Positions 1-50,835 of a DNA stretch of 64,000 nucleotides are shown in pieces. Every line of letters starts with the position of its first letter. Position 1 is the first letter of the stretch. The position numbers were made by a program, and so were the translations under genes. Source of the DNA: Rhodothermales bacterium (GTDB lineage Bacteria; Bacteroidota; Rhodothermia; Rhodothermales; Bin80). A model generated the notes under the pieces. That model had not been told where the DNA came from, searched no databases, and saw nothing but the letters and a program-made list of their open reading frames with translations. The stretch covers positions 461,276-525,275 of the forward strand of contig OZ241385.1 in the NCBI GenBank assembly GCA_965200825.1, in the 5' to 3' direction.

Positions 1-763
1 AAGATACGGGGCCAAGCCATTTGTCCCAATCAAGTGTTTTTCCGGGCTCAAGTTCTGACTCCAGTTCGTAGTAGTTCCATTCGCCCTGGGGAGTATTCCT
101 ATGGTAAGAGTCCTGTGCCAACACCAGCGGTCCTATTCGGCCAGCGCGGATCAGTTCTGCAGCTGCATGCCATTTTCCCTGAGTACAGTACTGTGAGCCA
201 ATTTGAAATTTATGGCCTGTTTCCTTAACCTTATCATAGATCTCAAACCCTTCAGTAAAGTAACGGGTCATGGGTTTTTCGCAGTAGACATGCTTACCTG
301 CATCCAGCGCATCTACCGCAATTTTCGTGTGCCAATGATCAACCGTACCGATGAAAACTGCATCAATATCAGGGTTGTCTAGAATTGCCTGATAGTCCTC
401 ATGAACCTCTACGGCGGCTTCACGGCCAGCTGCCTGGCGTGCAGCATCAAGTGCCTTATGAGCCCGGTCGCGTCGTTTGGAAAACAAATCACAAGCCGCT
501 GCTCCAATAGCATTCAACTGAACGTTATGGCGAGGCCTCCCATTATTCGTTGGATTGGTGACGCTTAACAGGTGAGCATTAAAACCCTGTCCGCCCACAC
601 CTATAAATCCACATACAATTGCGTCATTGGCCCCTAGCACTGAACCAGTTGCGGGTGCCTTGGAACGGGCAGTATTTACACCCTGCAATCCGGCCGCAAC
701 TGCGGCGGTACCGATAGCGGACTTTTTGATAAAGTCACGACGAGAGTTTTGTTTGTCTAGCAT
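1..763 (-). CDS. Gfo/Idh/MocA family oxidoreductase with twin-arginine (TAT) signal; 3' end runs off the window
   Basis: Minus-strand translation from the ATG at 763-761 gives MLDKQNSRRDFIKKSAIGTAAVAAG (SRRxFIK TAT motif), then the Rossmann stretch IVCGFIGVGGQG and EKP motif typical of the family. The six-frame track missed it because no stop lies inside the window. Confidence 0.75.
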   Translation of the reverse strand, partial: MLDKQNSRRDFIKKSAIGTAAVAAGLQGVNTARSKAPATGSVLGANDAIVCGFIGVGGQGFNAHLLSVTNPTNNGRPRHNVQLNAIGAAACDLFSKRRDRAHKALDAARQAAGREAAVEVHEDYQAILDNPDIDAVFIGTVDHWHTKIAVDALDAGKHVYCEKPMTRYFTEGFEIYDKVKETGHKFQIGSQYCTQGKWHAAAELIRAGRIGPLVLAQDSYHRNTPQGEWNYYELESELEPGKTLDWDKWLGPVS

Positions 764-1136
764 GATAAGTTATAATGATAGTTGACAATAATGAATGGAA
801 CCGCTTCCGAAAGCCGAGGCGGGCCCGGTAAGATACAAAAAAAAATTAAAAGAACAGATAGAAGACATGCCAATCAAACCTCTCCGCTTCAAATGGTTGT
901 CAGTTTCTCATCGACATATCATCCGGCATAAATTTTGAGAGGTTTAGTGCTTCGTTATCTGTTTGATGAAGGCTGTTTTTAATGGTTCTCATTATCTTTA
1001 ATGAATTGTGATTGTCTATCTTCATGGATGTCGGTGTTACATATCTTCGGTAGAGCCCTGTCCTCGGAGGGAATACAGACAGCACATACCAACACGTAAT
1101 ATGAAACAATTACGGCTGAATCAGCCTAAAATATAA

Positions 1137-1754
1137 ATGACCAAACTGTCACGGAAAATGATATCTTCTCTGAATTGGAAATCTTTGTCATGCGCACTTT
1201 TCCTGGTTATAATTCTGATAACACCTGTATATGCGCAGATTACAAATTACACCATCGCTCCTGAGAGTAACATATATGTAGACGGAACCTCAAATCAGAC
1301 ACCTGAATGGAGAGTCTATGCAACGGAAATTACTGGTACAGTGAACTTGAATGAAGAGGGCAATGTAGATACCGCACAGATAGTCGTGCCCTCCAAGATG
1401 ATGAAGAGTAAAAAAAGCCCGATTATGGATCGGGGGATGTATGATGCACTTCAGGCAAATGATTTTCCCGAGATTATTTATAAACTTGCTTCGGTTTCGG
1501 ACGTCACCGCCTCCAATGATACCATGTTCACGCTCAATGCAACGGGTAATCTGACGATTGCAGCGGAAACCAAAGAAATCAATCTTCCTGTGGAGGGCAT
1601 CAGGAAGCCGGGTGGTGCAATCCATTTCAGAGGAACACATGAACTCCTGATGACCGATTATGGACTCAAGCCTCCCTCCCTCATGTTTGGGCGTCTCAGA
1701 ACTGGTGATGAACTGGTTATCACCTTTGAGATCGTTGCCGTTCCGGCAGAATAG
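1137..1754 (+). CDS. YceI-like periplasmic polyisoprenoid-binding family protein (signal peptide)
   Basis: 205 aa with an N-terminal hydrophobic signal. Motifs resemble the YceI family (…DFPEIIYKL…; C-terminal GTHELLMTDYGLKPP…ELVITFEIVA). The start could instead be the internal Met at 1158. Confidence 0.5.
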   Translation: MTKLSRKMISSLNWKSLSCALFLVIILITPVYAQITNYTIAPESNIYVDGTSNQTPEWRVYATEITGTVNLNEEGNVDTAQIVVPSKMMKSKKSPIMDRGMYDALQANDFPEIIYKLASVSDVTASNDTMFTLNATGNLTIAAETKEINLPVEGIRKPGGAIHFRGTHELLMTDYGLKPPSLMFGRLRTGDELVITFEIVAVPAE

Positions 1755-1957
1755 ACACTAGAGCTCCAAAAGCTTGCACCTGTTTTTGACCCGGAATATG
1801 ATGATGACCTTGATATCCGGGAAGCCTCGACCGTCATTGGCCGCAGGGACTGTAGACGTTGCGTGATTTTTCAAGGAAATCGTATCAGGTGAATGCCCGG
1901 ATTGTTAGATGGAGTGCTCACTTGTTTCATCTGTATCCACAAGAATTGCGGTAGAGC

Positions 1958-4900
1958 CTATCTTTGAATTGGTGGTGCACCTGTTGCCTCTAGAGCACTG
2001 GTCAGCGCCGGGAGTACCGTTTCTTCAAAGGATGTCAAAGTTGCTTCAAGTTCAATGAGTTGGGTTTCGGCGATCTCCAACGACCGTTCGTGTAAATCCG
2101 TGGGTCCATAGGTGTTCTGTAGGCCACTCATTCCCACAAACAGCCGCGACATGAGTGTGGGTGAATTCCTTTCGCCAAGAGGATTTTTTGATTCATATCC
2201 GGTCAGATTATGATCAATTCCAAGGAGAGTAGTTCGTGCCTTGTGAAGCTCTGTGGTGAGTTCTGCTGAAGGATTTGTTGCCCGAAGATGCGCAGTCTCC
2301 ATGGCTTCGATTAATTCGGTATGATTTTCAAGAGACTCTGAGAATTTACTTGCGCGTTGCATCAGCGAAGCAACTTTTTTGCGATAGGAGTTGATTTCGC
2401 CAGGAGTTTTTCCCTCAAGTGCAGGCGCTCGAAGGGGTTCAACTTCAAATGAAGTAGGCCCGGAAAGAACTGATTCCATCCCATCGCTCACCCGAACTAA
2501 CGTGGCGGTGTAGGTGCCAGGTGTGGCAAGGAATCGGCCTGAGCCGTTATTTTGACTTCCGGGTCTGACTACGCTGGTCGCGGGATATCTTAGATCCCAG
2601 GTCGCTCGATGCATTCCTTTAGACGTGCCGCCAGCAACACGGCCGGCCACCTGGTTTGCTTCATCTCTGATCACGATAAAAACCTTGTCTTCAGTCTCGT
2701 TGAGCTCGGCGTCAAGTGCATCCCAGCCAGGAAAAGGAATATCCTCATCGGGGTCGATCTCCTTTTCTGCTTCCACCCGGGCCTGTTTCAGCGTTTGAGA
2801 GCCTTCACGAAGGTAGTAGGTGAAGTTTGTGCCATAAGGAGGGTTCGGGGCGGCAAAATAGTTAGTCCCCTGAGCAGTTCCTGCGACGTCACGTTCAATA
2901 AACAGCTTGGTTGTGCGCGGTGTGAACAGATGAGCATCCTGAGAGAGCAATTCTTCATTCACGAGCCGGAGGGGGGAGTAGTCGTCAAGAACGAAAAATC
3001 CACGGCCAAATGACGCAGCTATGACGTCATTTTCCCGTCTTTGAATCACAATATCCCGGAATGAAATCGTTGCATCGGATGCAATCTTTGTCCAGTACTT
3101 CCCACCATCAACGGTAAAGTAGATTCCAAATTCAGTCGCAGTAAACAATAAATCAGGGTTCACATGATCTTGTACAATACGCCAAATTAGTGTTCGATCC
3201 GGAAGATTTCCGGCAATGGAAGTCCAGGTACGACCACGATCGATACTTTTGATCAGATAGGGAGACAGATCCCCGAATTTATGATGGTCAAGTGCAGCAT
3301 ATACGACGTCTGCGTTATGCAAGTCGGCATAGAGGTTATTTACGAATGCGCCCGCAGGGATTCCATCAATGTTTCCAACTTCCAGAGTGCGCCAATTTTG
3401 ACCATCGTCTTCTGTAATCTGAATCAGACCATCGTCTGTCCCTACATATAGGAGTCCTGCTTCAAGAGGGGATTCAGCTATAGATGATATAGTATTATAG
3501 ACGGACATGGCATAAAAATCCCATGGATTATTATAGCTCTGGACACGCCCCATGATCGGAAGTTCAATACGTTCCTGATCAAGAGTCAGATCTCCGGAAA
3601 TGGCTTTCCAGCTGTCTCCGCGATCAATTGATTTCCAGACGCGGTAGGATCCAAAGTATAGTGTAGCCGGGTCATGAGGGCTCACAACGATGGGGGCATC
3701 CCAGTTGTAGCGTTCATTTTTTTCACCACTCCCTGCCTGGGGCTGAATCAGAGTTTGTTCGCCGGTAATCAGGTCAACACGATGTAATCGTCCCTGTTGA
3801 GATTGAGCGTAGATAATGTCAGGGTTTCCAGGTTCAACTGCGGATTGGTGTCCATCTCCTCCGAGTGTTTTGAACCAGTCAGCGTTTCGTATTCCGTGTC
3901 GATTATCGGTTCGCGAAGGGCCTCCATGAGATCCGTTATCCTGTGTGCCGCCAAAGATGCGATAGAACGGTTCGGAGTCATCTACGGCAACTTTATAGTA
4001 TTGTGTGATCGGAAGATTGCCGATAAAATCCCATGATTTTGTACCATCATAGGTTTGAAAAAGTCCCCCATCGGTTCCCATGAGAATATAATCCGGATCA
4101 TCCATACGGAAGCCCATTGCATGGTTGTCCACATGTTTATCGGTACCACTCATTCGATAAAATGTACGTCCATGATCATGGGATACCTGCACACGCACAT
4201 CCATGAGATAGATCGTTCCCTCTTGGTGTGGTGAAGCATAGAGTTCCTGATAATAATGGGGACCAGTTGCTCCTGCAACTGCATCCGACATTTTTTCCCA
4301 GGAAGCTCCCCGATCAGAAGACATAAATATTCCGCCGGTTCTCAGATCAAGTTCAATTGCTGCATAAATGATGTCCGGGTTTTGAGGTGAAATCGCCAGG
4401 CCGATTTTTCCAAGGTTTGATTTGGGGATTCCTTTGGTAAGGGGCATCCAGGTGTGTCCACCATCTGTACTTTTATGAAGTCCAGTGCCGGGGCCACCTC
4501 CCATATATGCAGCTACATTCCTATGCCTTTGCCATGTAGCAGCATATAGAACTGAGGGATCTCGAGGATCAATGACCAAATCCGTGACTCCGACCCATTC
4601 ATTATCTCCGAGTTTGTGCTCCCATGACTTACCTCCATCCGTACTCATATAGAGTCCTCGCTCCCCTCCACTATTCCAGAGTGGCCCTTGTGCAGCAACC
4701 CAGATTACGTCACTGTTATCCGGATGAACAATGATTCGCGAAATATGTCGAGATTCCTTGAGCCCCATGTTGTGCCATGTTTCGCCTCCATCATCACTAC
4801 GATAGATACCGTCGCCATAGCCTACGTGTCGGCCGCCGACATTTTCTCCTGTGCCAACCCAAACCGTATGAGGGTTTCGTGGATCCAGAGTGATGGCTCC

Positions 4901-5176
4901 AATAGAGTAAGATCCTTGCCCGTCAAAAAGAGATTTCCAGGTAGTTCCGGCATTGCCAGTTTTCCATACACCGCCACTTCCTACGGCGACATACCACACA
5001 TTGTCATCTTCAGGATGCATTGCAATGTCGGCAATGCGCCCCGATGTGAATGCAGGCCCCACATTGCGTAATTTTATGGCAGAGAAATCTGTCTCATGAA
5101 CCAAGTTGTCTTGAGCGAAAACGGGGGATGTCATGAGAATCCCGATCAGGGAAAGCGTACGAACGAGGTAAGTCAT
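1958..5176 (-). CDS. Secreted BNR/Asp-box (sortilin/Vps10-like) beta-propeller repeat protein
   Basis: 1072 aa with a signal peptide (…SPVFAQ). Many repeats of the S-x-D-x-G-x-T-W type (SDDGGETW, STDGGKSW, STDGGHTW, SIDRGDSW, SIDRGRTW, TVDGGKYW) characteristic of BNR/sortilin double propellers. Confidence 0.6.
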   Translation of the reverse strand: MTYLVRTLSLIGILMTSPVFAQDNLVHETDFSAIKLRNVGPAFTSGRIADIAMHPEDDNVWYVAVGSGGVWKTGNAGTTWKSLFDGQGSYSIGAITLDPRNPHTVWVGTGENVGGRHVGYGDGIYRSDDGGETWHNMGLKESRHISRIIVHPDNSDVIWVAAQGPLWNSGGERGLYMSTDGGKSWEHKLGDNEWVGVTDLVIDPRDPSVLYAATWQRHRNVAAYMGGGPGTGLHKSTDGGHTWMPLTKGIPKSNLGKIGLAISPQNPDIIYAAIELDLRTGGIFMSSDRGASWEKMSDAVAGATGPHYYQELYASPHQEGTIYLMDVRVQVSHDHGRTFYRMSGTDKHVDNHAMGFRMDDPDYILMGTDGGLFQTYDGTKSWDFIGNLPITQYYKVAVDDSEPFYRIFGGTQDNGSHGGPSRTDNRHGIRNADWFKTLGGDGHQSAVEPGNPDIIYAQSQQGRLHRVDLITGEQTLIQPQAGSGEKNERYNWDAPIVVSPHDPATLYFGSYRVWKSIDRGDSWKAISGDLTLDQERIELPIMGRVQSYNNPWDFYAMSVYNTISSIAESPLEAGLLYVGTDDGLIQITEDDGQNWRTLEVGNIDGIPAGAFVNNLYADLHNADVVYAALDHHKFGDLSPYLIKSIDRGRTWTSIAGNLPDRTLIWRIVQDHVNPDLLFTATEFGIYFTVDGGKYWTKIASDATISFRDIVIQRRENDVIAASFGRGFFVLDDYSPLRLVNEELLSQDAHLFTPRTTKLFIERDVAGTAQGTNYFAAPNPPYGTNFTYYLREGSQTLKQARVEAEKEIDPDEDIPFPGWDALDAELNETEDKVFIVIRDEANQVAGRVAGGTSKGMHRATWDLRYPATSVVRPGSQNNGSGRFLATPGTYTATLVRVSDGMESVLSGPTSFEVEPLRAPALEGKTPGEINSYRKKVASLMQRASKFSESLENHTELIEAMETAHLRATNPSAELTTELHKARTTLLGIDHNLTGYESKNPLGERNSPTLMSRLFVGMSGLQNTYGPTDLHERSLEIAETQLIELEATLTSFEETVLPALTSALEATGAPPIQR

Positions 5177-5404
5177 ATGAAATGTTATTTGGAATAAGCC
5201 CGAAAGATAAGATTATGGAACGGGAAATATGGATTATTTCACAAAAAATCGAAAATTCAATAATCCAAAAATGAAGAATGAAGGTGAAAAATGTCTATAG
5301 AATTGCCAATTCCCAGAAGAATGTTTTCCTAGTAGCCAATCATGCACCGGTTGCGGGACGGGTTTCTATGGATCCACTGTCTTCGTCCTTTAGGTTGAGG
5401 TCAA

Positions 5405-6217
5405 TCATCCAATACGCCTGTGGTTCAGACAGGGTAGCCGCTTACGCAGTTGATTCTGATATGCGAAATTCAAGTCGCTGCTGATCACACAGGTTCGATC
5501 TGGTGCCTGTGCAAGAATCTGTCCCCAAGGATCAATGATTACCGAGTGTCCAAAACTTTCCCGCTCGGTATTGTGCCGTCCGAACTGAGCTGGTGCAACC
5601 ACATAGGACAGGTTTTCAATTGCACGTGCCCGAAGAAGTGCAAGCCAATGGTATGCACCAGTTCTCCAAGTGAATGCCGAGGGGACAAAGAGTACCCGCG
5701 CGCCCTGAGCCGTCAATACTCTGTATAATTCTGGAAAGCGCAGGTCGTAGCATACGCTGAGTCCCATTTTTGCTCCCAGAGCTTCAAATGTGACAGGTGT
5801 CTTACCTGGCTTAATGTAACGAGATTCCATAAATGAGTGAGAGTCGTCCAAATGAATATCAAATAGATGGATTTTGTCGTATCGAGTAATAATTTGACCG
5901 TCGGGTCCAAAAACCAGGCAGGTGTTTGTGACTCGATCATTTGCCGACAGGGGTACCGTGCCTCCCAAGATATATATGGAATGTGATTGAGCTAATTTCT
6001 GGAGCAGCTCAACTGCGGGTCCATCATTAAGGTTTTCGACCGCATCGATCTTTTTTCCCTCTCGATCCAGGTATGAAAAATTTTCGGGAAGTGCCACAAG
6101 TTGTGCATTTTGAGAAACTGCTTCTTCAATCAAAAGCTTCGCCTGTGAAAGGTTAGCGTCGATGTTTTGGCCAGAGCACATTTGCACGGCGGCTACTCGT
6201 ATGGAAGAAGGAGACAT
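5405..6217 (-). CDS. Carbon-nitrogen hydrolase (nitrilase/Nit-family amidohydrolase)
   Basis: 270 aa. RVAAVQM…, LVALPE (catalytic Glu region), VCYDLRFPE (catalytic Cys), typical CN_hydrolase spacing. Confidence 0.8.
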   Translation of the reverse strand: MSPSSIRVAAVQMCSGQNIDANLSQAKLLIEEAVSQNAQLVALPENFSYLDREGKKIDAVENLNDGPAVELLQKLAQSHSIYILGGTVPLSANDRVTNTCLVFGPDGQIITRYDKIHLFDIHLDDSHSFMESRYIKPGKTPVTFEALGAKMGLSVCYDLRFPELYRVLTAQGARVLFVPSAFTWRTGAYHWLALLRARAIENLSYVVAPAQFGRHNTERESFGHSVIIDPWGQILAQAPDRTCVISSDLNFAYQNQLRKRLPCLNHRRIG

Positions 6218-6274
6218 GGAGAGAAAATTCAGATGATGTATATTTCGTGTCCAACCAGATACTCCCTTAATTTG

Positions 6275-7135
6275 ATGCGTTTATTTAGTACAATTTTGTT
6301 TGTTGTCATTTTTATACTCGGCTGTGGCAATATGGAAACAGAACAGGCCATGATGGAAGAGCCTGATATCAGTTCACTCACTGCCGTAACTGAAGCACGC
6401 CTCATGGCGACAGAAGGAGGCCAACTCCTGTTACGTGCAATTAATGCTCATGGTGGCTTAGATGCCTGGCACAACGCAGAGACGAGCAGTTATGTTTGGG
6501 GATTTGAAGGTGGCATGAAGGGGAAAATGGTTGCCCATAATCGAACTCGGCAGGTATACCATGATATCATGTTTATGGGGGACGAAGCAGCACCGGATGC
6601 TCAGATGGCCTGGGATGGAACCAATGCCTGGATTTACCCTGATTCCCTTCCCACATCACCACGCTTTATGGCCACTACGGGGTACTATTTTCAGTCAATT
6701 CCCTTTATCCTTGCCGATCCCGGAGTTCGTTATGAGGTATTGACTCCTGCGCTCCTTGATAGCGTAGAGCATCAGATTGTGCGTGCAACGTTTGATGATG
6801 GTGTAGGAGACGCTCCAGGAGATCATTACACGCTCTACATTAATCCCGAAACACACATGGTCAATGCAATTCTGTATCGATCAACATATGGCCGCGGACG
6901 TCCGGAGATCAGCGAAGATATGCTTCAGACGCTTCTATACTACGAGGATTATGTTACAGTTGACGGGTTAACGGTCCCCACTCAATTTGAAGGATATGGA
7001 TTTTCAGGGGGATCGAAAGGTGAAAAATATTATGAGGCCGCATCGAGCGAACATTCTTATACGCAGCCGTTTGATGAAAGCCGGCTTGTTATGCCAGAAG
7101 GTGGCAGGGTAGATCCAATGCCTTCCAGTGAGTAA
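6275..7135 (+). CDS. Hypothetical lipoprotein
   Basis: The track ORF 6167..7135 overlaps the convergent hydrolase. The internal Met at 6275 gives MRLFSTILFVVIFILGC (lipobox LGC). No recognisable catalytic motifs. Confidence 0.4.
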   Translation: MRLFSTILFVVIFILGCGNMETEQAMMEEPDISSLTAVTEARLMATEGGQLLLRAINAHGGLDAWHNAETSSYVWGFEGGMKGKMVAHNRTRQVYHDIMFMGDEAAPDAQMAWDGTNAWIYPDSLPTSPRFMATTGYYFQSIPFILADPGVRYEVLTPALLDSVEHQIVRATFDDGVGDAPGDHYTLYINPETHMVNAILYRSTYGRGRPEISEDMLQTLLYYEDYVTVDGLTVPTQFEGYGFSGGSKGEKYYEAASSEHSYTQPFDESRLVMPEGGRVDPMPSSE

Positions 7136-7185
7136 ATTTGTCCTTTGTGCAGTTTGCATTTGAGTCAAAAGTAAAAACTTGTGTC

Positions 7186-8095
7186 ATGTCAAAAATAGTC
7201 AGCTGTATGGATCGCCGAGAATTTATTACTACTACTGTGGGGGCATTATCGGTTGCAACGGTGCTTCCCGGACGAGTGATTGGTAGAACAAGTCATGTCT
7301 CTCCGAACGATAAAATTCATGTTGCATTGATTGGCTGCGGAACGCAGGGCTTGCGTCAATTGATGAGCGATTGGTTGCCAAGAGATGATATTCATCTGGT
7401 TGCACTTTGTGATCCAAATAAGGATTCGGAGGATTATCGTGACTGGAGTCCACATGGACTCCGCAATGAGGTGCGTCAGTTTTTGAACAACCCAAATTGG
7501 GGATCCGAAACAGGGATTCGAGCCGGCCTCATGGCGGCAAAGGAGGTAGTTGAAGGTCATTATGCAAACAAACGCGGACAGAGTAACTGGCATGGCTTGA
7601 AGCTTTACTCGGATTTTCGAGAAATGCTGGCCGAGTCCGAAGGCATAGATGTCATTATTAATGTGACACCTGAGCACCTTCACGGAGTCATTAATATTGC
7701 CGTAATGAAGGCGGGAAAAGCTGTGGTCTCTCACAAGGTACTTGCCAACACATTGCATGAGGTGCATCAAACTGTACAGGTTGCCAAGGAAACCGGTGTG
7801 ACAAGTCACCTATTGGCGTGGAATAATGATCCCGAACTCTATCAATTGTGGGAGTGGATCGATCTGGGAGTCATTGGTAAAGTAAAGGAGGTACATAATT
7901 GGTCCAATCGCCCTGTGTGGCCACAGGGGTGGCTTGAAACACCCAAGGAGGAAATGGCAATCCCAGATGGCCTAGACTGGAAACTGTGGCTTGGATGTGT
8001 TCCTGATCGACCATATCATATTGATTACACGCATGCTCTTTTTCGAGGATGGTATGAATTTGGGAGCGGCGCTCTGGGAGATATGGGATACTATA
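7186..8095 (+). pseudogene. Gfo/Idh/MocA oxidoreductase (TAT signal), N-terminal fragment, interrupted by IS insertion
   Basis: MSKIVSCMDRREFITTTVGALSVATV (TAT motif), Rossmann HVALIGCGTQG, then …GSGALGDMGYY where the reading frame runs into the IS terminal inverted repeat at 8096. Confidence 0.75.
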
Positions 8096-9723
8096 GAGCC
8101 TCTTGCAAAACCTCTGAGCTCGAAGAACTGAGGGACAAAAGAAGATAGTACTGTTTATTCTTCAGGCCCTGTTTTGTTCCCAAAAAAGGGAAGATTTTCG
8201 ATCAGTTTCCTTGGAAGCCCTGTCTTTTTCGAATTTCGTAGAACATGCGCCTTCATTTCATCTGTTTGGGGGCATAATTCGTACCGATTCCCCCCACCAA
8301 TCCTACGAGTCCCTGATTTCAGAACCCCAAATTTTGATTCTTAAACGCAGATTGAACCCGTTTACTGGATCAATCGGAGCATTTGGTCTACCGTGAGCAC
8401 CACCACGCCAAACATCAGGTGACACCTTACTTTCTCATGTCCACGCACTCGAAGATTGCGTGCGCCAAACTCATCCTTCAACCGTCCAAACGCCCGCTCT
8501 ACGGTAGATCGCTCTTTGTAACGTTCCCGCTCCGCAGGAACGAAATTTGCATGCCGCCGTGCCTTTAGCTCCCGGTCATGCGCCGCTTTTTGATTGCGCG
8601 GATTCTTGTCAATGATCGGAACCCGTCCAGCAGCTCGGCTCTCTGCGTATAGATCCTCTGCGTCATAGGCACTGTCCATGATCTCATACAGATACGCAAC
8701 CTGTTGCTCCGTGATTCGAGACAGTGGAATGGCTGCCTGACTATCATGCATGGACGCAGACGTTACCATACAACTGATAGGAATACCACCATCCGCAGTA
8801 TCCATGTGGAGCTTATATCCAATCCATTTCGTCGTATGCCCCTTTGCATTCCGCTTGCATCCCACGGTACAGTCGTTTGGAAGATCCTCCAACATTTCGT
8901 CTACGTCCATCGTCCGTTGTTTTTCCATGCGACGAAGTTCCTTGGGCCGTTCTTCTCCCTTTTTCGGACGTCCACGCTTTTTCGGGGCAGGGGCAGGAGC
9001 TTCCTTCTTTGGAACCGGTTTCTCTCGGGCCTCAATCGCCGTGGAATCCCGAGAAATATGGCCCACCAACTCTCCGTCATACCCTTCTGCAATCAAGGCC
9101 TCATGAATTCGGTTCGGGAGCTGATTGTGCGCAAACTCTCGGAACGCACGCGAAAACGTGGATTCACTGGGCACGGTCAGATCGCTGGGCCAGCCACAAA
9201 TGGACCGAAGGATCGAATCGGTCAACAGCCGCTCTCGGAGCGCTGACGTCGTCTGGATATTCAAGACCATCTTCGCCATAAAACTCCGCGCAAGACTCGC
9301 GCGATGCGCTTCCGGGCGTCCTCCATATCGACCGGGCAACGAGCGCGGAAGATGATCGTCCACTCGTGCTATTTCAAGCACCATCATCAGCTTCTGGTAC
9401 CGCTTGGGGAGTGAGCCAAACTGCCGTTCCAGCCACGGAAACAATTCTTGCTGGCAACTGATATAAAAGCCTCGTATTTTCTTTTTAAGGGACATGGGAA
9501 CCTCCGTTTTTGTGTTTGGATTTTGATACCCTAAAGATACGAAATCTGGAGGATTCCGTCCCTTATTTTAACTCCGGAATAAGAGTCAATCTGGTATGTT
9601 TCGAGACAGAAAAAAATAATTTGACCAGGTTCCCAAAAGGCGATCTAAATTGCCCGAATTGGATGCGCAGAGGTCGGGAATTTTTCAAAAAATACCCCGA
9701 TCCAGAGGTTTTGCAAGAGGCTC
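8096..9723 (-). mobile_element. Intact insertion sequence, IS4/IS5 superfamily (DDE_Tnp_1-type transposase), about 1628 bp
   Basis: Perfect terminal inverted repeat: 8091-8116 ctatagagcctcttgcaaaacctctg is the exact reverse complement of 9703-9728. Likely structure is a 21-bp IR (gagcctcttgcaaaacctctg) flanked by a 4-bp TATA direct duplication (8092-8095 and 9724-9727). Contains a single transposase ORF. Confidence 0.8.
8362..9495 (-). CDS. DDE transposase (IS4/IS5 superfamily)
   Basis: 377 aa. C-terminal YKERSTVERAFGRLKDEFG matches the Y-x2-R-x3-E-x6-K signature of DDE_Tnp_1 transposases, and there is a basic KKRGRPKK linker. Sits between the inverted repeats. Confidence 0.75.
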   Translation of the reverse strand: MSLKKKIRGFYISCQQELFPWLERQFGSLPKRYQKLMMVLEIARVDDHLPRSLPGRYGGRPEAHRASLARSFMAKMVLNIQTTSALRERLLTDSILRSICGWPSDLTVPSESTFSRAFREFAHNQLPNRIHEALIAEGYDGELVGHISRDSTAIEAREKPVPKKEAPAPAPKKRGRPKKGEERPKELRRMEKQRTMDVDEMLEDLPNDCTVGCKRNAKGHTTKWIGYKLHMDTADGGIPISCMVTSASMHDSQAAIPLSRITEQQVAYLYEIMDSAYDAEDLYAESRAAGRVPIIDKNPRNQKAAHDRELKARRHANFVPAERERYKERSTVERAFGRLKDEFGARNLRVRGHEKVRCHLMFGVVVLTVDQMLRLIQ

Positions 9724-10326
9724 TATAGTTTGTGGAGAACTTATCGGATATTGAATCCGGGGCCAGTGATCAGCGTGCAATCCAATGCAGCGACTGGAGC
9801 GGCCATTGTCAGAAATCAGAGCCAATGGCGGCGCTCGAAGGTTGCATTCCCCACTGCCAGCATGGTTCATTTTGAACACCGAGATGTTGATATTTTCTGG
9901 TATGATGGAGGGATGAAACCACGCATTCCCAAAGGATTGCTGGCATCGGGTGAGGCGCTTCCCATGGAAGGAGCCCTGTATGTAGGAGAACATGGAGTGA
10001 TCATGGGCAACGACTTTCTATCGAAAAGTTTTCGTCTTCTGCCTGAACGTCAAATGATCAATGAGCAAGGATCCATTCCAATTAAGCGACCGGTTGAAGC
10101 GGTGAAAAATTTGACAGATGAGTATGTAGATGCAATTCGAGAGGGAAAACAAAGTCGGGGAAGCTATATTAATGTTGCGAATCTTGCCGAAGCCTGTGCG
10201 CTCGCAAACATATCTCTGCGTACAGATGAACATATCACTTGGGATGCGGTGAATCAGAACATTACAAGCGGCAACGTCCCACAGGAGTACATCACACGTG
10301 AATACCGTGAGGGCTGGTCTGTCTGA
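9724..10326 (+). pseudogene. Gfo/Idh/MocA oxidoreductase, C-terminal fragment (continuation of 7186..8095)
   Basis: Translation LWRTYRILNPGPVISVQSNAA… resembles the C-terminal alpha/beta domain of the family. Both fragments are in the same frame modulo 3, and removing the IS plus one TATA copy (1632 bp = 3x544) restores …GDMGYYSLWRTYRILNPGP…. Confidence 0.7.
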
Positions 10327-10413
10327 ATCTAGGCTCCGGGCATGCTCGATCAATCATTGGTAGCAATGATACCGTCTTGGTAGGCAGGTTGAAATTTTGT
10401 CTGTATTCAATTG

Positions 10414-10770
10414 GGTTCTACTACAATTTGTATGGAATGATTAATTTTGGTTGAACGAACCTTAAACTCATTTTCGAATGCAAAGCAACGTAATCGATTC
10501 CATCATGGAGTACTCCTTTGGGTCATCAGTGTGGAAGAGTCGGGCGTGAACGAAGTCATGAAGATTGCCCAGATGTTTCAGAATCATCTTCACGGGGTTT
10601 GTAACGCGCTTTGTCACCCACAATCCAATGCCAAAGCGGAGCGAATGAATGGAAAATCCAAGAGGTCAAAACGATCGGTAGAGGATACAGGAAATTTGAA
10701 AACTTCAGATCCGCCATCCTCTTCTTCTGCGGTGGCCTAGCGCTTTATCCACAACAATCGTAGTAGTACC
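10414..10770 (+). repeat. Direct repeat copy 1: 3'-terminal fragment of an ISL3-like transposase gene plus its downstream end (frameshifted)
   Basis: About 95% identical to 12696-13049. Encodes …SNAKAERMNGK… matching the ISL3-family C-terminus N-x3-EG-x-NNKIK-x2-KR-x2-YG-x-RNF-x-NFR-x2-IL. Copy 1 has a 1-nt deletion relative to copy 2. Confidence 0.7.
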
Positions 10771-11031: not shown

Positions 11032-11532
11032 ATGAAAACTACCCTACTGACTCAATCAGATCAAAAGGAGGCACTTTCACATGTGTATGTGAGGTCACTC
11101 GCTGCTATATCTGGTTTTATTACGTCTGTACCAGAGCAAGATCGTGATAGTGTTGACTTACGAATCCAGGCTGGCGGTTCTCGTAGGCCTGCCTTAGATC
11201 TACAATTAAAGGCCACAACTAAATTATCGGCTAACCAAGAAGGTGCTCTAAATTTTCGCATCTCTATTAAAAACTACAGAGATCTTCGCGACAAGACGCA
11301 AACTCCGCGATTGCTCGTTGTATTGAAACTACCAGAGGACCCGTCAAAATGGTTGATGGTAACTCCTGAAAAACTTATACTTCATAGTCATGCCTATTGG
11401 CTTAGTTTACAAAAGGGTTATGAGGACGTGGCTGATCAAGAAACGATTACGGTCCATATTCCTCAAAAAAATGTACTCAATGTTGAAACTTTGAAAACCC
11501 TAATTGAACAATCCAGAACTGGTACAATCTAA
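11032..11532 (+). CDS. DUF4365-like (PD-(D/E)xK-clan nuclease-like fold) protein
   Basis: 166 aa. N-terminus QSDQKEALSHVYVRSLAAISGFITSVPEQDRDSVDLRIQ follows the pattern I recall for DUF4365 (…E.lg..yV..la…Gf…..Eq…DyGiDl.I.). Its stop shares 1 nt with the next start (taATGa). Confidence 0.5.
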   Translation: MKTTLLTQSDQKEALSHVYVRSLAAISGFITSVPEQDRDSVDLRIQAGGSRRPALDLQLKATTKLSANQEGALNFRISIKNYRDLRDKTQTPRLLVVLKLPEDPSKWLMVTPEKLILHSHAYWLSLQKGYEDVADQETITVHIPQKNVLNVETLKTLIEQSRTGTI

Positions 11533-12680
11533 TGAGATTCAGCATTCATGATCGAGATTCATTACTGGCCATCACGCCGGTTGCTCTTTCCACATATGCA
11601 AATACAGCTGGGTGGGAGCGGCAAGGGACATACCGTGAGCATTCGGATATTTATACTGGTGAAAATCTTCCAGAAATCATTGTTCCTCGAACCGATCGCT
11701 TAGGAGATTATGCGAGCGTGGTTGTTGAATTGATTCGGATGTTTGCCCAAGTCAAACATCAAGATGAGTCAAGTGTGTATCGATCACTTTTGACTACAGA
11801 CCGTGATATCGTTCGTTTACGTACGGGAGATGAAGAGAAGGGTAATTTATCCCTTGACCAAGGCGTTGACTTAATTAGCGGTGCCCGTGATATGTTGAAG
11901 GCAGTGGCATGCTCTCTGGGGAATCCCAAAATGGTGTACCGGGCTGGGGCACATCAAAGTGCGCGTGATCTGCTTTCCAGGGTCCGTCTTGGACATACTG
12001 AGCGGGGTAGCTATGTGATTACATTGGTGATGCCAGTTTTGCCGCCTCCGACACCAGTAATGTTTCCAGATGACTCAGGATCAGACTTACCAATTGAACG
12101 ACTTCTCACTGTTCGCTTAATGAAGGCTCTTTTCGCTGCACGTTCAGCAACAGAGGAAGCTGTATCTGGCGGTGCAAATTCTTTTAGGGAAGCCGTGGAA
12201 GATGGAGTGAGTGCCAACCTTTGCGAAGCTTTGGTACAGATCATTGATTCTTCCGATACACTTGACGTAAATGTGACTTGGGCCAGTAGTCAGCCTAACG
12301 AACTGTTGCATAAGACAGCCTTCTTTAGTCGTACAGATCTGCCCATATTACGCAGTGCTGCGCGGTCGTTTAGAGAGTATTCCCCCAAACCTGATGTTCG
12401 CCTGTATGGATATGTACGACTACTGGAACGAGGACCAGAGGAAGAAGATGGGACGATTCGTCTAAATACAATGGTAGACAATAAGAACGTATCCGTTACG
12501 GCGATGTTGGGACGCCAGGACTATGAACGGGCGGTTCAAGCTCATCGTGATAAAGCATTGGTTATTCTTTCTGGTGATCTTGAGCACTTTGGACACCGAT
12601 GGAAGCTATTGAACTCACAATTTGAGGGAGTGCTTAGAGACGAAGAATGTGATCTTGTTGAGCAGTCATCTGTGATGTGA
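11532..12680 (+). CDS. Hypothetical protein, partner of the DUF4365-like gene (no recognisable motifs)
   Basis: 382 aa, translationally coupled to the upstream gene. No Walker A, HEPN, HNH or other motif found by eye. Long ORF with normal codon usage. Confidence 0.5.
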   Translation: MRFSIHDRDSLLAITPVALSTYANTAGWERQGTYREHSDIYTGENLPEIIVPRTDRLGDYASVVVELIRMFAQVKHQDESSVYRSLLTTDRDIVRLRTGDEEKGNLSLDQGVDLISGARDMLKAVACSLGNPKMVYRAGAHQSARDLLSRVRLGHTERGSYVITLVMPVLPPPTPVMFPDDSGSDLPIERLLTVRLMKALFAARSATEEAVSGGANSFREAVEDGVSANLCEALVQIIDSSDTLDVNVTWASSQPNELLHKTAFFSRTDLPILRSAARSFREYSPKPDVRLYGYVRLLERGPEEEDGTIRLNTMVDNKNVSVTAMLGRQDYERAVQAHRDKALVILSGDLEHFGHRWKLLNSQFEGVLRDEECDLVEQSSVM

Positions 12681-12695: not shown

Positions 12696-13049
12696 GGTTC
12701 TACTACAATTTGTATAGAATGATTAATTTTGGTTGAACGAACCTTACCTCATTTTTGAATGCAAAGCAACGTAATCGATTCCATCATGGAGTACTCCTTT
12801 GGGTCACCAGTGTGGAAGAGTCGAGCGTGAACGAAGTCATGAAGATTGCCCAGATGTTTCAGAATCATCTTCACGGGGTTTGTAACGTGCTTTGTTATCC
12901 ACAATCCAATGCCAAAGCGGAGCGAATGAATGGAAAAATCCAAGAGGTCAAAAAGATCGGTAGAGGATACAGGAAATTTGAAAACTTCAGATCCGCCATC
13001 CTCTTCCGCGGTGGTCTGGCGCTTTATCCACAACAATCGTAGTAGCACC
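12696..13049 (+). repeat. Direct repeat copy 2: 3'-terminal fragment of an ISL3-like transposase gene (intact frame, 95 codons)
   Basis: Encodes MNAKQRNRFHHGVLLWVTSVEESSVNEVMKIAQMFQNHLHGVCNVLCYPQSNAKAERMNGKIQEVKKIGRGYRKFENFRSAILFRGGLALYP. Same orientation as copy 1. Identity breaks down at identical points on both sides. Confidence 0.7.
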
Positions 13050-45491: not shown

Positions 45492-47318
45492 TCATGAATC
45501 TCCCACACTCAAACTGCAATTACTCTGTATATCTTCTACAGCTTTTCGTTCATCGTAGTCCATGGTTAATCTCCATGTATCCTTGAGTGCAACCCAGCGC
45601 TTAACATAAATGCAGTGGTAGGTTGTGTTCGGTGGGAGCCAATTTGCAGGATCTCGACTTCCCTTGGATCGGTTCATACTGGCGGAGACTGGAATCAGCA
45701 ACCCACCTTTGCTGAGGTCATTTCCAAAAGAATAACGTGTACTATCATCCCATTTTGCTGCACCACTACGATGTGCCTCTGCAAGCGGTATGAAGTGATC
45801 AATATCTATTGCACCCGGATCGGTTATGAGTGTATCCAGGTATGGATCGAGCCACTTGCCAGCAAGAACGATGCATTGAGTTTCATCGAGGGTTGGGTCA
45901 ACGAGGCTCTCGGCGATCAGGACTTCATGTCGTGTATTCTGGCAATCACTGTCCGCATCTAGCCAACCTCCATATAGATTTCGATGATAGGGCAGAGGTG
46001 AAGTGCGAACAGAAGATGTGTCTGGTGAATTTGTGAGGAGGTCTGTAGAGTCTACAGTGACACTGGGTGCATCTGCACAAAACCCAGATTCCTGAAAATT
46101 CGAAAGTGTTTCAGGAGGAATCTCTCTCACATCAAGGAGTTCGTCCAGTGTTGTAAACGATCCATGTTGGCTTCGATACCCAATGATCGCCTGTGCTCTG
46201 ACGGGGCCAATCCCATGCACACGTTGAAGAGTTGAAGCATCCGCGGTATTGATGTTTTCACAGGCGGTTTCGGATAGAATGGAATCATCTAAAGTAACGT
46301 GCGAATGATGATCTGGGTATTCACCTGTGCTATTGGATACATGGATGCAAAAATTTGCCCTTCGAAAATTCTCAAGCGTAGCTTTTCCGATCCCTCTGAC
46401 TTGAATCAAGTCATCCAGCGATTCAAAGAATCCGTGTTGCTCACGATAGTCAATGATAGTTTGTGCTTTCGTGGGGCCAATTCCTTGAATACGTTGAAGA
46501 GTTGCAGCATTCGCAGAATTGATGTCGGTACAATTTTGATCTAAAGTGGCCGAAATATTGGCAGGCGTCTGAGATTGGGTCTCCGAGTTTCTATTTGTTG
46601 TGCTGGCCTTCTCCCGTGCTACACAGAAGCCTGCATCCCGGAAATTTTTAACAGTGGCTGGGCCGATGCCTTTCACCTGTGCCAAATCGTCTAAGGACTG
46701 AAATGGCCCGTTTTGATTGCGATAGTCTATGATAGCTTGTGCTTTGGATGCACCGATTCTATTTACTCGCTGAAGATCCGAAGCATTGGCTGTATTAATG
46801 TCGTTGTCACAGTCAGTTTCAGGAACTATTGGACCATCTGCAGGCGGGGGCGAGGGATCGTTTTTGGGTTCATTTGTTTGGGTTTTATCCTGCACACAGA
46901 AGCCAGCTTTGCGGAAATTCTCAACGGTGGCAGGCCCAATGCCTTTAACTTGTGCCAAATCGTCCAAGGACTGAAATGGTCCGTTTTGATTACGGTAGTC
47001 AATGATTGCCTGTGCTTTGGCACGTCCGATCCCTTTGACTCGTTGGAGCACTGCTGTATTTGCTGTGTTTATGTCTTCGCAGTTGCTGGCAGTTTGGATT
47101 CGTGTTATATCGTGATCAGTCGTCCAGTCTGTTTCAGGAGCATCTTTCTCAAGGTTGTCACCAAGTAAAACAGCAGTTAAGGAAGCGTTTCTTGCCATTG
47201 AGGTTGCGGGCCCCGAAAATATTGGCAAAATCAGAAAGAGGAGAAAAGAGAAGGAAATCAGAGTTAGTGATGCCAGTATAGATTGGTTTATGGGAGAGTA
47301 CAACTTGGCTTGATTCAT
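45492..47318 (-). CDS. Secreted protein: four tandem ComEA-like helix-hairpin-helix DNA-binding repeats fused to a C-terminal DUF1524 (His-Me finger/HNH-like) nuclease domain
   Basis: Signal peptide. Four ~95-aa repeats each carrying …INTA.A..LQRV.GIG..KAQAII.YR.Q.GPF.SLDDL.QV.GIG.AT…NFR.AGFC…. C-terminus DIDHFIPLAEAHRSGAAKW…FGNDLSKGGLLIPVSASMNRSKGSRDPANWLPP matches the DUF1524 core. Confidence 0.65.
   Translation of the reverse strand: MNQAKLYSPINQSILASLTLISFSFLLFLILPIFSGPATSMARNASLTAVLLGDNLEKDAPETDWTTDHDITRIQTASNCEDINTANTAVLQRVKGIGRAKAQAIIDYRNQNGPFQSLDDLAQVKGIGPATVENFRKAGFCVQDKTQTNEPKNDPSPPPADGPIVPETDCDNDINTANASDLQRVNRIGASKAQAIIDYRNQNGPFQSLDDLAQVKGIGPATVKNFRDAGFCVAREKASTTNRNSETQSQTPANISATLDQNCTDINSANAATLQRIQGIGPTKAQTIIDYREQHGFFESLDDLIQVRGIGKATLENFRRANFCIHVSNSTGEYPDHHSHVTLDDSILSETACENINTADASTLQRVHGIGPVRAQAIIGYRSQHGSFTTLDELLDVREIPPETLSNFQESGFCADAPSVTVDSTDLLTNSPDTSSVRTSPLPYHRNLYGGWLDADSDCQNTRHEVLIAESLVDPTLDETQCIVLAGKWLDPYLDTLITDPGAIDIDHFIPLAEAHRSGAAKWDDSTRYSFGNDLSKGGLLIPVSASMNRSKGSRDPANWLPPNTTYHCIYVKRWVALKDTWRLTMDYDERKAVEDIQSNCSLSVGDS
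45998..47078 (-). repeat. Four tandem ~290-bp coding repeats (ComEA HhH modules) inside 45492..47318
   Basis: Protein-level near-identical repeats, and the same is visible at DNA level (for example the …ttggcacaggtgaaaggcatcggcccagccactgtt… variants). Confidence 0.6.
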
Positions 47319-48456: not shown

Positions 48457-50490
48457 TCAAGTTGATCCACGTAGCGCTCGCGCGGCGATCATCCAATCCA
48501 TTGCAGCGGATTGATTTCGCACATAATACCAGTATGCGTGCTCAATTTCTTCCGGTGGACGCTTAAGACGAGGTCCTAACATTTCACTGACCGCAAATAC
48601 TCCTGATCGGAGTTGCCATTCCGGATCGGGAATAAAATCTCCTTCTTCGTCAAAACCAATCAGCGATCGCTTTCCAAGCAGAACAGTACGCCACTGTCGG
48701 GTGCGTTCACTCCTGCGTGCCCACCTAGACTGGGGGCCTGCCAATTTAGAAATCAGTAAAATGACTGGATGAATGATAGCTCCAATCAGTGCGGCAATCA
48801 TATCAGATACGCGACGGGCAGCAGTAGATCTTAATGTTCCAATCACTTCTTCAGCATCCAGAAGTGTGCGTTCTCCCAAGTTTTCAATGGACGACTTTCC
48901 AATGAGATGATCCTGGCGTTCAGCCAGAATATAAGTCTGCATAGGAATTCCCAAGAGCTTTTGCATGAGCACAAAAATTTCTTTATTGGTCAAAGTGGCG
49001 GATGCAAAAATTACAGTTTCGATGTTATGGATACGTACAATATCACGTAATTGATCGTAGTTGCCCAATCGGGTAAGCGTTGAGTGCACATTATTTTTTT
49101 GCTCCTGTGTTACAATTCCCACAAGAACATATTGTGATAGATATTGCGAAGCAAGAATATTCGCATCGAGAAGATTTCCCACGACAATAGTCCTCCGCCC
49201 AAGTCGCTTGCGAGTTTTTGGAATTAGTCGTACGGCAGAGAGGAACAGTAGACAGGCAGGCAGGCAAGCAAGCACGACCATCCGCGAAAATGCTATTTGC
49301 TTAATGAAGAATGAAAGTGCTGCAAGTACAATCACAGAAACGAAAGATCCCAGCACAACAAGTCCCAAGCGAGGGCCTCTTCCCCGATACCCCCCCCAAG
49401 CAGCGATGACTCCGGTAACAATTAGTGCAAAAAGTGGAGATAATCCCCAATAGAATATAGGGGGGAATTGCAATCCAGATTGAAAAGATCTCAGAAATCC
49501 TAAAGAAGTAATAATTCCAAAGCAGATCATTAAATCATATGCGGCCGCATGGCGCAGCATATTTCCCAGTACAGTGAGTGATCCGCGAACAATCACAGCT
49601 AGGTGTAAAATCCACAGAAAGATTTTAGGGTAATCTTCACTCAAATGCTTTTGTGCGAAGCGAGTCATTGCGCCATAGAAGAGGCGCACATATTTAAAAT
49701 CCCCTTTCTTGGTACTTTCACCTTTATAGTGGATGATCTGAGTTTCCGGGGTATAGTAAATAGTCCAGCCAGCATTCTGGATTCGATAACACAAATCGAG
49801 ATCCTCTCCATACATAAAGAAATCTTCGTCAAAAAGCCCCGATCCACCACGGCCTGGGGGGGCATCGGGGGAGATGAGGGCTGATTTTCGCAAAAACATG
49901 CAGGACCCACTCAGAGCATCCACGGTGGCGATCTGATCCTCGGGCAGAAATGTAAGGTTGTATTTACCGAAAATCCGACTCCGTGGAAATATTCGACTCA
50001 ATCCGGTCATTCGGTAAAATGCAATTATTGGCGTAGGAAATGAACGGCGACTCTCCAAGGCAAATGTTCCATCGGGGTTCAGAATACGGCATCCTACTGC
50101 TCCGGCATCCGGGTGAGATTCCATGAAGTCAATCAATACCTTGATTGTATCTTCTTCAACAATAGTGTCGGGGTTCAGAATGAAGATGAATTCTCCATTT
50201 GCTACGCGTATACCTTGGTTGTTGGCCACGGAGAATCCATTATTTTCGTGATTGACAATCAATGTGATGTGAGGGAATTCCTCAACCAGCATACTCACTG
50301 AGCCATCCACTGAGTTATTGTCCACGACAATTACTTCAGATGAAATATTGATAAGGGATCGTTCAATGCTCCGAAGAGCCTGCCGAAGAAGGTCTCTCAC
50401 ATTATAATTAACAATGATCACCGATACCTTGACGGGTTCGGGTGATTTACCTAGGGGAGTCTGTGTGATTGTTAGGTGGTTGTCACTCAT
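48457..50490 (-). CDS. Family 2 glycosyltransferase fused to a C-terminal multi-TM/soluble extension
   Basis: N-terminal VSVIIVNYNVRD…VVDNNSVDGS… (GT-A, DxD-like VDNNS), then several TM helices and a ~250-aa uncharacterised C-terminal region. 677 aa. Confidence 0.7.
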   Translation of the reverse strand: MSDNHLTITQTPLGKSPEPVKVSVIIVNYNVRDLLRQALRSIERSLINISSEVIVVDNNSVDGSVSMLVEEFPHITLIVNHENNGFSVANNQGIRVANGEFIFILNPDTIVEEDTIKVLIDFMESHPDAGAVGCRILNPDGTFALESRRSFPTPIIAFYRMTGLSRIFPRSRIFGKYNLTFLPEDQIATVDALSGSCMFLRKSALISPDAPPGRGGSGLFDEDFFMYGEDLDLCYRIQNAGWTIYYTPETQIIHYKGESTKKGDFKYVRLFYGAMTRFAQKHLSEDYPKIFLWILHLAVIVRGSLTVLGNMLRHAAAYDLMICFGIITSLGFLRSFQSGLQFPPIFYWGLSPLFALIVTGVIAAWGGYRGRGPRLGLVVLGSFVSVIVLAALSFFIKQIAFSRMVVLACLPACLLFLSAVRLIPKTRKRLGRRTIVVGNLLDANILASQYLSQYVLVGIVTQEQKNNVHSTLTRLGNYDQLRDIVRIHNIETVIFASATLTNKEIFVLMQKLLGIPMQTYILAERQDHLIGKSSIENLGERTLLDAEEVIGTLRSTAARRVSDMIAALIGAIIHPVILLISKLAGPQSRWARRSERTRQWRTVLLGKRSLIGFDEEGDFIPDPEWQLRSGVFAVSEMLGPRLKRPPEEIEHAYWYYVRNQSAAMDWMIAARALRGST

Positions 50491-50569: not shown

Positions 50570-50835
50570 CTTAGAGCTATGAGCAAAAATTGATTGATAA
50601 AGCGAGAAAAAACGTTCTGTTTTAGCTCCAAAATAAGGAGCAAAACCTCTGGATTTTGCATCTTCGGGGCATCAAAATTCTAAAAGAAAAACGGAGTTTT
50701 TCATGTCCCTTAAAAAGAAGATAAAAGAGTTTTATATCAGTTGCCAACAGGAATTGTTTCCCTGGCTGGAACGGTAGCCTAGTTTACTTCCCAAGCAGTA
50801 CGAGAAGCTGATACTGATCTTTGAAATTCTCCTGG
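50570..50835 (+). mobile_element. Diverged partial copy of the same IS family as 8096..9723: left inverted repeat, leader and the first ~24 transposase codons, then decaying
   Basis: 50703-50776 encodes MSLKKKIKEFYISCQQELFPWLER*, versus MSLKKKIRGFYISCQQELFPWLERQ in the intact copy. The upstream leader aligns (…aaaataaggagcaaaacctctggattttgc… vs …aaaataagggacggaatcctccagatttcg…), and the IR-like end ccttagagctatgagcaaaa compares with ctatagagcctcttgcaaaa. Confidence 0.7.

Follow-up and report, generated by a model that had tools for sequence, protein, structure and literature searches.

A 64,000-nucleotide stretch of a Rhodothermales bacterium (assembly GCA_965200825.1, contig OZ241385.1, positions 461,276 to 525,275; hereafter the window) carries a 1628-bp insertion sequence (IS) inside a gene for a Gfo/Idh/MocA oxidoreductase. 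We consider it very probable that this element, which appears to belong to the IS5/IS1182 lineage with ISUnCu17 as its nearest relative, transposed very recently into the chromosome of a Rhodothermales-type bacterium, at the sequence ACTATAGT of that gene, knocked out the enzyme, and is most likely still mobile. The features of the locus are as follows, in window coordinates:

7207–8095, plus strand: 5′ part of the oxidoreductase gene, codons 1–296 and the first base of codon 297 (Pfam PF01408 and PF19051; the database protein P0001 starts at the ATG at 7207)
8092–8095, no strand: left target-site duplication TATA (a single ACTATAGT is present in the empty sites of the public contigs L006–L008)
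8096–9723, minus strand: complete insertion sequence, 1628 bp, probably IS1182-like and of the ISUnCu17-like subgroup (recurs in five other contigs with at most one difference)
8096–8116, plus strand: IRR, the terminal inverted repeat (IR) on the 3′ side of the transposase gene, GAGCCTCTTGCAAAACCTCTG
8362–9495, minus strand: transposase gene, 377 amino acids, with DUF772, DDE_Tnp_1 and DDE_Tnp_1_6 (Pfam; NCBIfam best match IS1182)
9703–9723, minus strand: IRL, the IR on the 5′ side of the transposase gene, matching IRR perfectly
9724–9727, no strand: right target-site duplication TATA (from the empty-site comparison)
9728–10326, plus strand: 3′ part of the oxidoreductase gene, from the second base of codon 297 to the stop codon (translation matches P0001)

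The element extends from 8096 to 9723 and has perfect 21-bp IRs and a 4-bp TATA duplication. Its guanine-plus-cytosine content is 50.2%, compared to 45.8% for the window. Positions 8090–8116 are the perfect reverse complement of 9703–9729 (27 nt, 100%), with the arms separated by 1586 nt, and the complementarity breaks off sharply at the inner edge of the 21-mer GAGCCTCTTGCAAAACCTCTG. The window contains exactly two copies of the 21-mer, one per strand, whereas 100 dinucleotide-preserving shuffles gave no match with up to three mismatches tolerated. The outer 6 nt of the complementarity lie outside the element and consist of the palindromic TATA duplication and the A-C/G-T bases (end context AC-TATA-[GAGCC...GGCTC]-TATA-GT); they are complementary because the 8-bp target ACTATAGT is itself palindromic. 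The window by itself allows a duplication of 2, 4 or 6 bp, an ambiguity that the empty sites and other copies resolve. Duplications of 2 or 6 bp, which the palindromic CTATAG permits, were rejected since the other copies show unrelated bases just outside GAGCC and GGCTC. An earlier reading, made from the sequence alone, had placed the inverted repeat at 8091–8116 and 9703–9728; the repeat is real, but this extent is short by one outer base per arm. That reading's proposal of 21-bp IRs and a TATA duplication of 4 bp is borne out by the filled and empty sites and by the five other copies, which end at identical bases.

Three public metagenome contigs (L006, L007, and L008) carry the empty site and supply the uninterrupted allele that the sequence-only reading had suggested looking for in related strains. 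They read GGGATACTATAGTTTGTGG, with one ACTATAGT only, and align to positions 1–8096 and 9723–10584 of the window with 0–1 mismatches, both alignments overlapping by 6 nt. Flank identity to the window is 8095/8096 and 862/862 nt for L006 and 1970/1970 and 861/862 nt for L007. The 5′ part of the gene is 100% identical to positions 1–1970 of L007 and L008, and the sequence downstream of the empty site is 100% (L006) or 99.9% (L007 and L008) identical to the window. All four public contigs with the neighboring 286-amino-acid gene hold the uninterrupted allele. A look-up of the truncated 5′ product, with starts at 7207 and 7186, yielded no record of the same filled allele elsewhere, and an exact 21-mer scan of reference genomes returned no locus ≥ 95% identical to the window outside the IS.

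The exact transposase protein was found on 12 public contigs. Five contigs (L001–L005) contain the same 1628-bp unit at 99.94–100% identity (at most one difference in ~1630 nt) within unrelated flanks, including at least five distinct flanks on the IRL side. Similarity to the window always stops at GAGCC or GGCTC in these contigs, and the adjoining bases vary (T, C, A, A; A, A, T), so that the ends fall at the same positions in all five copies, as the sequence-only reading would require of a genuine element. In L002, a 207-codon open frame runs right up to the IS end, and the element therefore interrupts another open reading frame (ORF) there too.

The two halves of the interrupted gene can be joined without loss. 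The upstream ORF ends with ...GALGDMGYY, continues for 17 IS codons (RASCKTSELEELRDKRR*), and stops at 8146–8148, while the downstream plus-strand frame starts with (L)WRTYRILNPGPVISVQ; (L)WRTYRILNPG. Both boundaries had been read correctly before. Removal of 1632 bp yields a single ORF of 502 amino acids from the ATG at 7186, or 495 amino acids from the ATG at 7207, in agreement with the roughly 500 amino acids predicted earlier. The 495-amino-acid database protein P0001, which the empty-site contigs encode, is 100% identical to the reconstruction. Homologs of the reconstructed ORF are plentiful at 79–42% identity, and those named by source are Gfo/Idh/MocA oxidoreductases of Rhodothermaceae, Rhodothermales or Bacteroidota. 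The alignment proposed in the sequence-only reading, of the reconstruction with 120 homologs (121 sequences), has no gaps at the junction. The IS lies between the Y303 and S304 codons of the GDMGxYSLW motif, the most conserved of the gene, in which D299, M300, Y303, and S304 are invariant in the 121 aligned sequences.

The reconstructed protein matches the Pfam Rossmann domain PF01408 (44.1 bits) and the C-terminal domain PF19051 (53.4 bits), the N- and C-domains anticipated earlier, and the PF19051 match extends from residues 252–302 to 252–341 after IS removal. The interrupted gene thus codes for a Gfo/Idh/MocA oxidoreductase with both the NAD(P)-binding Rossmann domain and the C-terminal alpha/beta domain. 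Among NCBIfam models, that of the BT_2158-type glycoside 3-dehydrogenases, NF058561, scores highest (230.5 bits, under the 750-bit cut-off), and the nearest solved chains, over residues 128–383 only, are 8tdf and 8tdh (“Dehydrogenase”; E = 1.6e-42). The protein is probably a relative of periplasmic glycoside/sugar dehydrogenases, in a subfamily related to the BT_2158-type. A literature search on PDB 8TDF/8TDH and on ISUnCu17 found nothing usable.

The N-terminus carries a D-R-R-E-F-I twin-arginine motif (RREFI) followed by a hydrophobic stretch, and homologs keep NRREFI. The protein had been labeled as secreted by twin-arginine translocation (TAT); the motif is visible, but no TAT signal model in Pfam or NCBIfam matched the interrupted protein at E ≤ 0.01. 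At the window start (1–763, minus strand), a second Gfo/Idh/MocA gene, of 464 amino acids in L006, is present by its N-terminal part, which has an SRRDFIK twin-arginine motif. This gene had been described as a TAT-signal paralog, and the gene and its motif are present, but at 25% identity to the interrupted gene it appears to be a distant family member and not a close paralog.

The transposase fits its earlier description as intact. Its ORF is full length, the start codon is at the position used by its homologs, with GGAGG 8 nt upstream, and the Pfam matches PF05598 (32.2 bits), PF01609 (60.8 bits), and PF13751 (32.7 bits) each exceed the gathering score. The triad D150 (SRDST), D274 (MDSAYD), and E333 is invariant in an alignment with 12 relatives at 43–77% identity. 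R329 and K340 are likewise invariant, giving Y326-x2-R329-x3-E333-x6-K340.

By analogy with its family, the transposase would bind the two identical 21-bp ends and cleave, the ends would be joined to target phosphates staggered by 4 bp, and gap repair would duplicate TATA. The insertion splits the gene between the Y and S codons of GDMGxYSLW, so that the strain can make no more than an N-terminal fragment of 296 residues, to which the IS adds a tail of 17. Because everything from the conserved motif onward is lost from the 5′ fragment, the enzyme cannot be made, and the insertion knocks it out in this strain. The sequence-only reading had suggested a recent insertion, and a very recent one is well supported by the sequence comparisons because the flanks differ from the empty alleles by ~1 nt in 9 kb and neither gene half has decayed, because the IRs and duplication are perfect and no more than 1 nt separates the six copies, and because all four contigs with the 286-amino-acid gene keep the intact allele. 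The element is likely still active.

Several points weigh against the reading of a recent and still mobile IS1182-like element. Mobility is inferred from sequence. A scan for a sigma-70-like transposase promoter in 9496–9723 found none, although the scan did no better than chance and is perhaps ill suited to this phylum, and promoter and terminator counts over 7000–10500 were at shuffle level. L001 and L003, the two short-read contigs in which the element has a flank on either side, have no matching 4-bp duplication. The evidence on copies covers the 64-kb window and public contigs. With regard to the family, the transposase does not reach the IS1182 cut-off of 270 bits (the profile has 488 positions, the protein 377 residues), and, in place of a curated threshold, the family label rests on how named relatives are annotated and on ends and duplications of shared anatomy. 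The undetected promoter and the purely sequence-based case for movement could also suggest that the window copy is a dead relic, inserted in the past, immobile now, and so not a marker of ongoing activity, and the remnant of a related element at 50630–50828 indicates that the lineage does accumulate dead copies. However, the ORF is full length with intact catalytic residues, the IRs are identical at 21/21 positions beside an intact duplication, the six copies are nearly identical, and the presence of the element at this site varies among strains whose flanks are 1 nt apart in ~9 kb, and we regard a dead relic as very unlikely. Identical multi-copy IS elements are, moreover, a classic source of misjoins, and the apparent pairing of non-matching flanks in L001 and L003 might suggest that the insertion itself is an assembly or consensus artefact, with a repeat misplaced in the contig. 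In those two contigs, short-read assembly has probably linked flanks from different copies across the repeat; the occurrence of ATAA on both L005-left and L001-right is compatible with mis-paired flanks, yet ORF continuity gives no confirmation. In the window, on the other hand, the two junctions fall within a single gene and complement each other exactly, and the 4-bp duplication exactly repeats a sequence that is single in the empty site, which a misjoin would not yield. An artefact is scarcely credible.

The family assignment depends on weighing profile scores against named relatives. The best NCBIfam model for the transposase is IS1182 (NF033551; 103.9 bits, E = 9e-30, in three stretches), for which the cut-off is a tool threshold and not an ISfinder definition; the score is far under that cut-off, and the protein would therefore fall in a divergent, short-transposase subgroup. 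None of the IS5 models reached their cut-offs either (IS5_4 71.5/140, IS5_3 61.4/110, IS5_2 51.3/140, and IS5_1 18.6/275 bits). No IS4-family NCBIfam model was among the transposase matches at E ≤ 0.01, and the Y-2-R-3-E-6-K spacing, present and conserved here, does not discriminate, as this signature is common to the IS4 sister families. All nine full-length plasmid matches (9/9) carry an annotation either as IS1182 family or as IS1182-like ISUnCu17, with identities of 40.8–46.6%, the lowest being Acinetobacter copies labeled IS1182 family (40.8% transposase identity). Membership in the IS5 family (IS5 group) instead of IS1182 would leave the anatomy and consequences unchanged. It could be argued from the extent of the IS5_4 match (71.5 bits over residues 56–360) and the 61.4 bits of IS5_3, from DUF772 and DDE_Tnp_1, which are found in IS5-group transposases as well, and from the homolog cluster P0235, source-named “IS5/IS1182 family transposase”. 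GAG termini with 4-bp duplications are also typical of the IS5 group. We nevertheless consider an IS5 membership unlikely, as IS1182 is the top-scoring curated model, the transposase C-terminus matches Pfam DDE_Tnp_1_6, and the full-length annotated plasmid relatives are without exception IS1182 family, including ISUnCu17 with an identical 15-nt terminus. By its closest annotated relatives, the element is best described as IS1182-like, of the ISUnCu17 subgroup. This replaces the earlier label “IS4/IS5 superfamily”, which holds at the level of Pfam DDE_Tnp_1 but not for the nearest annotated relatives, which are of the IS1182 family.

The 21-nt end is not confined to this element. The exact 21-nt IR recurs in at least four phyla, in Rhodothermales, Tepidisphaerales (Planctomycetota), Verrucomicrobiota, and Kiritimatiellota (loci L009, L010, and L012–L040). 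The Verrucomicrobiaceae metagenome-assembled genome (MAG) CAZNKC01 (loci L017, L019, L024, L028, L036, and L039) has miniature elements of ~114 bp from IR to IR, flanked by the 4-bp duplications TTCA, ACTT, AATA, and GGGA. A 1534-bp element with the same 21-nt IR and a transposase 41% identical is present in Tepidisphaerales, and single 21-nt ends, with no transposase detected nearby, were found in Pontiella and Kiritimatiellales. Tentatively, ISUnCu17-like elements (~375–380 amino acids, GAGCCTCTTGCAAAA termini, and strict 4-bp duplications) might form a coherent subgroup between IS5 and IS1182 that has not been formally described, with its 21-nt end in at least four phyla and 114-bp miniature derivatives. 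If so, recognition between transposase and end would be unusually constrained, or the elements would have spread recently between phyla.

The surroundings of the insertion vary as well, this locus being a hotspot for differences between strains. Two ~357-bp internally deleted ISL3-type copies (10414–10770 and 12696–13049), 95% identical and in direct orientation, contain frameshifted remnants of a transposase C-terminus (Pfam DDE_Tnp_ISL3) and have the ends GGTTCTACTAC... and ...GTAGTAGTACC; no matching 8-bp duplications were seen at these copies. They bracket a DUF4365 gene (11032–11532) and a 382-amino-acid gene without a Pfam match (11532–12680). Within the first ISL3-derived repeat, the empty-site strain of L007 has an extra 3.85 kb (L007 2827–6673, corresponding to window 10577–10584) that holds an 807-amino-acid Eco57I/N6_Mtase-type restriction-modification gene beside an IS1595-type transposase. 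An 8-bp overlap between the alignments at this insert suggests an 8-bp duplication, and the insert may be an IS1595-like element carrying a restriction-modification passenger.

Further into the window, positions 50630–50828 retain ~200 nt that are 79% identical to the 5′ untranslated region and start of the IS, including 42 codons that are 71% identical to the transposase N-terminus and end in a stop. This relic of a related element adjoins the start of a 677-amino-acid ORF (48457–50490, minus strand). Internal direct repeats at 46120–47075, with ~270-nt spacing and 73–79% identity, lie in a 608-amino-acid ORF (45492–47318, minus strand) and suggest a protein built of repeated ~90-residue domains. 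An Rfam scan of the whole window returned no match.

For general biology, the insertion carries little weight, as knock-outs of accessory genes by IS elements are routine. It is, however, an unusually clean example in that filled and empty alleles are both public with flanks ~1 nt apart in 9 kb, and this pair is enough, with no experiment, to fix the element ends, the duplication length of 4 bp, and how recent the event is. To catalogues of the ISfinder type, the element adds a new, well-defined IS of 1628 bp with perfect 21-bp IRs, less than 50% identical to every annotated relative, and the insertion is usable as a strain-level marker in this Rhodothermales population.

Among known elements, the best annotated match to the transposase is a copy on plasmid pBHB of Comamonas sp. 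7D-2 (WP_015585990.1, IS1182 family; 46.6% over 99% of the transposase). This copy has the ends GAGGCTCTTGCAGAA / ...GCAAGAGCCTC and the 4-bp duplication TGGT/TGGT, but differs at several IR positions and resides on a betaproteobacterial plasmid. ISPse1 of Paracoccus seriniphilus, also of the IS1182 family, is 1653 bp long with 16/16 IRs and 4-bp direct repeats, and was captured experimentally in trap plasmids as a functional element (PMC3281130); by that published description, it resembles our element in size and duplication length. Within the Rhodothermales, the chromosome-level MAG OZ220707.1 contains four full-length sister elements (1633–1637 bp, ~75% nucleotide and 72–77% amino acid identity) with perfect 4-bp duplications (TATT, GAAC, TAGG, and CCTC). 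One of their ends is the identical 21-mer, whereas the second IR differs in the inner 3 nt (…CCTAAC or …CCTACC), which makes each a sister element and not the same IS. Three further sister-element copies in this MAG (L014, L018, and L031) align only to transposase residues 1–291 and the IR, and could represent a common deletion derivative that multiplied.

ISUnCu17, an ISfinder name used in NCBI annotation for an IS1182-family element, occurs on IncP plasmids, one host being Aeromonas caviae and the other an uncultured bacterium. It shares with the window element a single transposase ORF of similar length (43.5% identity over 96% of the query) and the identical terminal 15 nt GAGCCTCTTGCAAAA, with ends GAGCCTCTTGCAAAA / TTTTGCAAGAAGCTC and an ATGA/ATGA 4-bp duplication. 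No target consensus emerges among seven duplications. ISUnCu17 differs in its length (1483 bp compared to 1628 bp) and its imperfect IRs (14/15), in that fewer than half of the residues are identical, and in its plasmid-borne setting within a resistance integron region of a Pseudomonadota host. In its anatomy, the window element nonetheless appears typical of the ISUnCu17-like subgroup.

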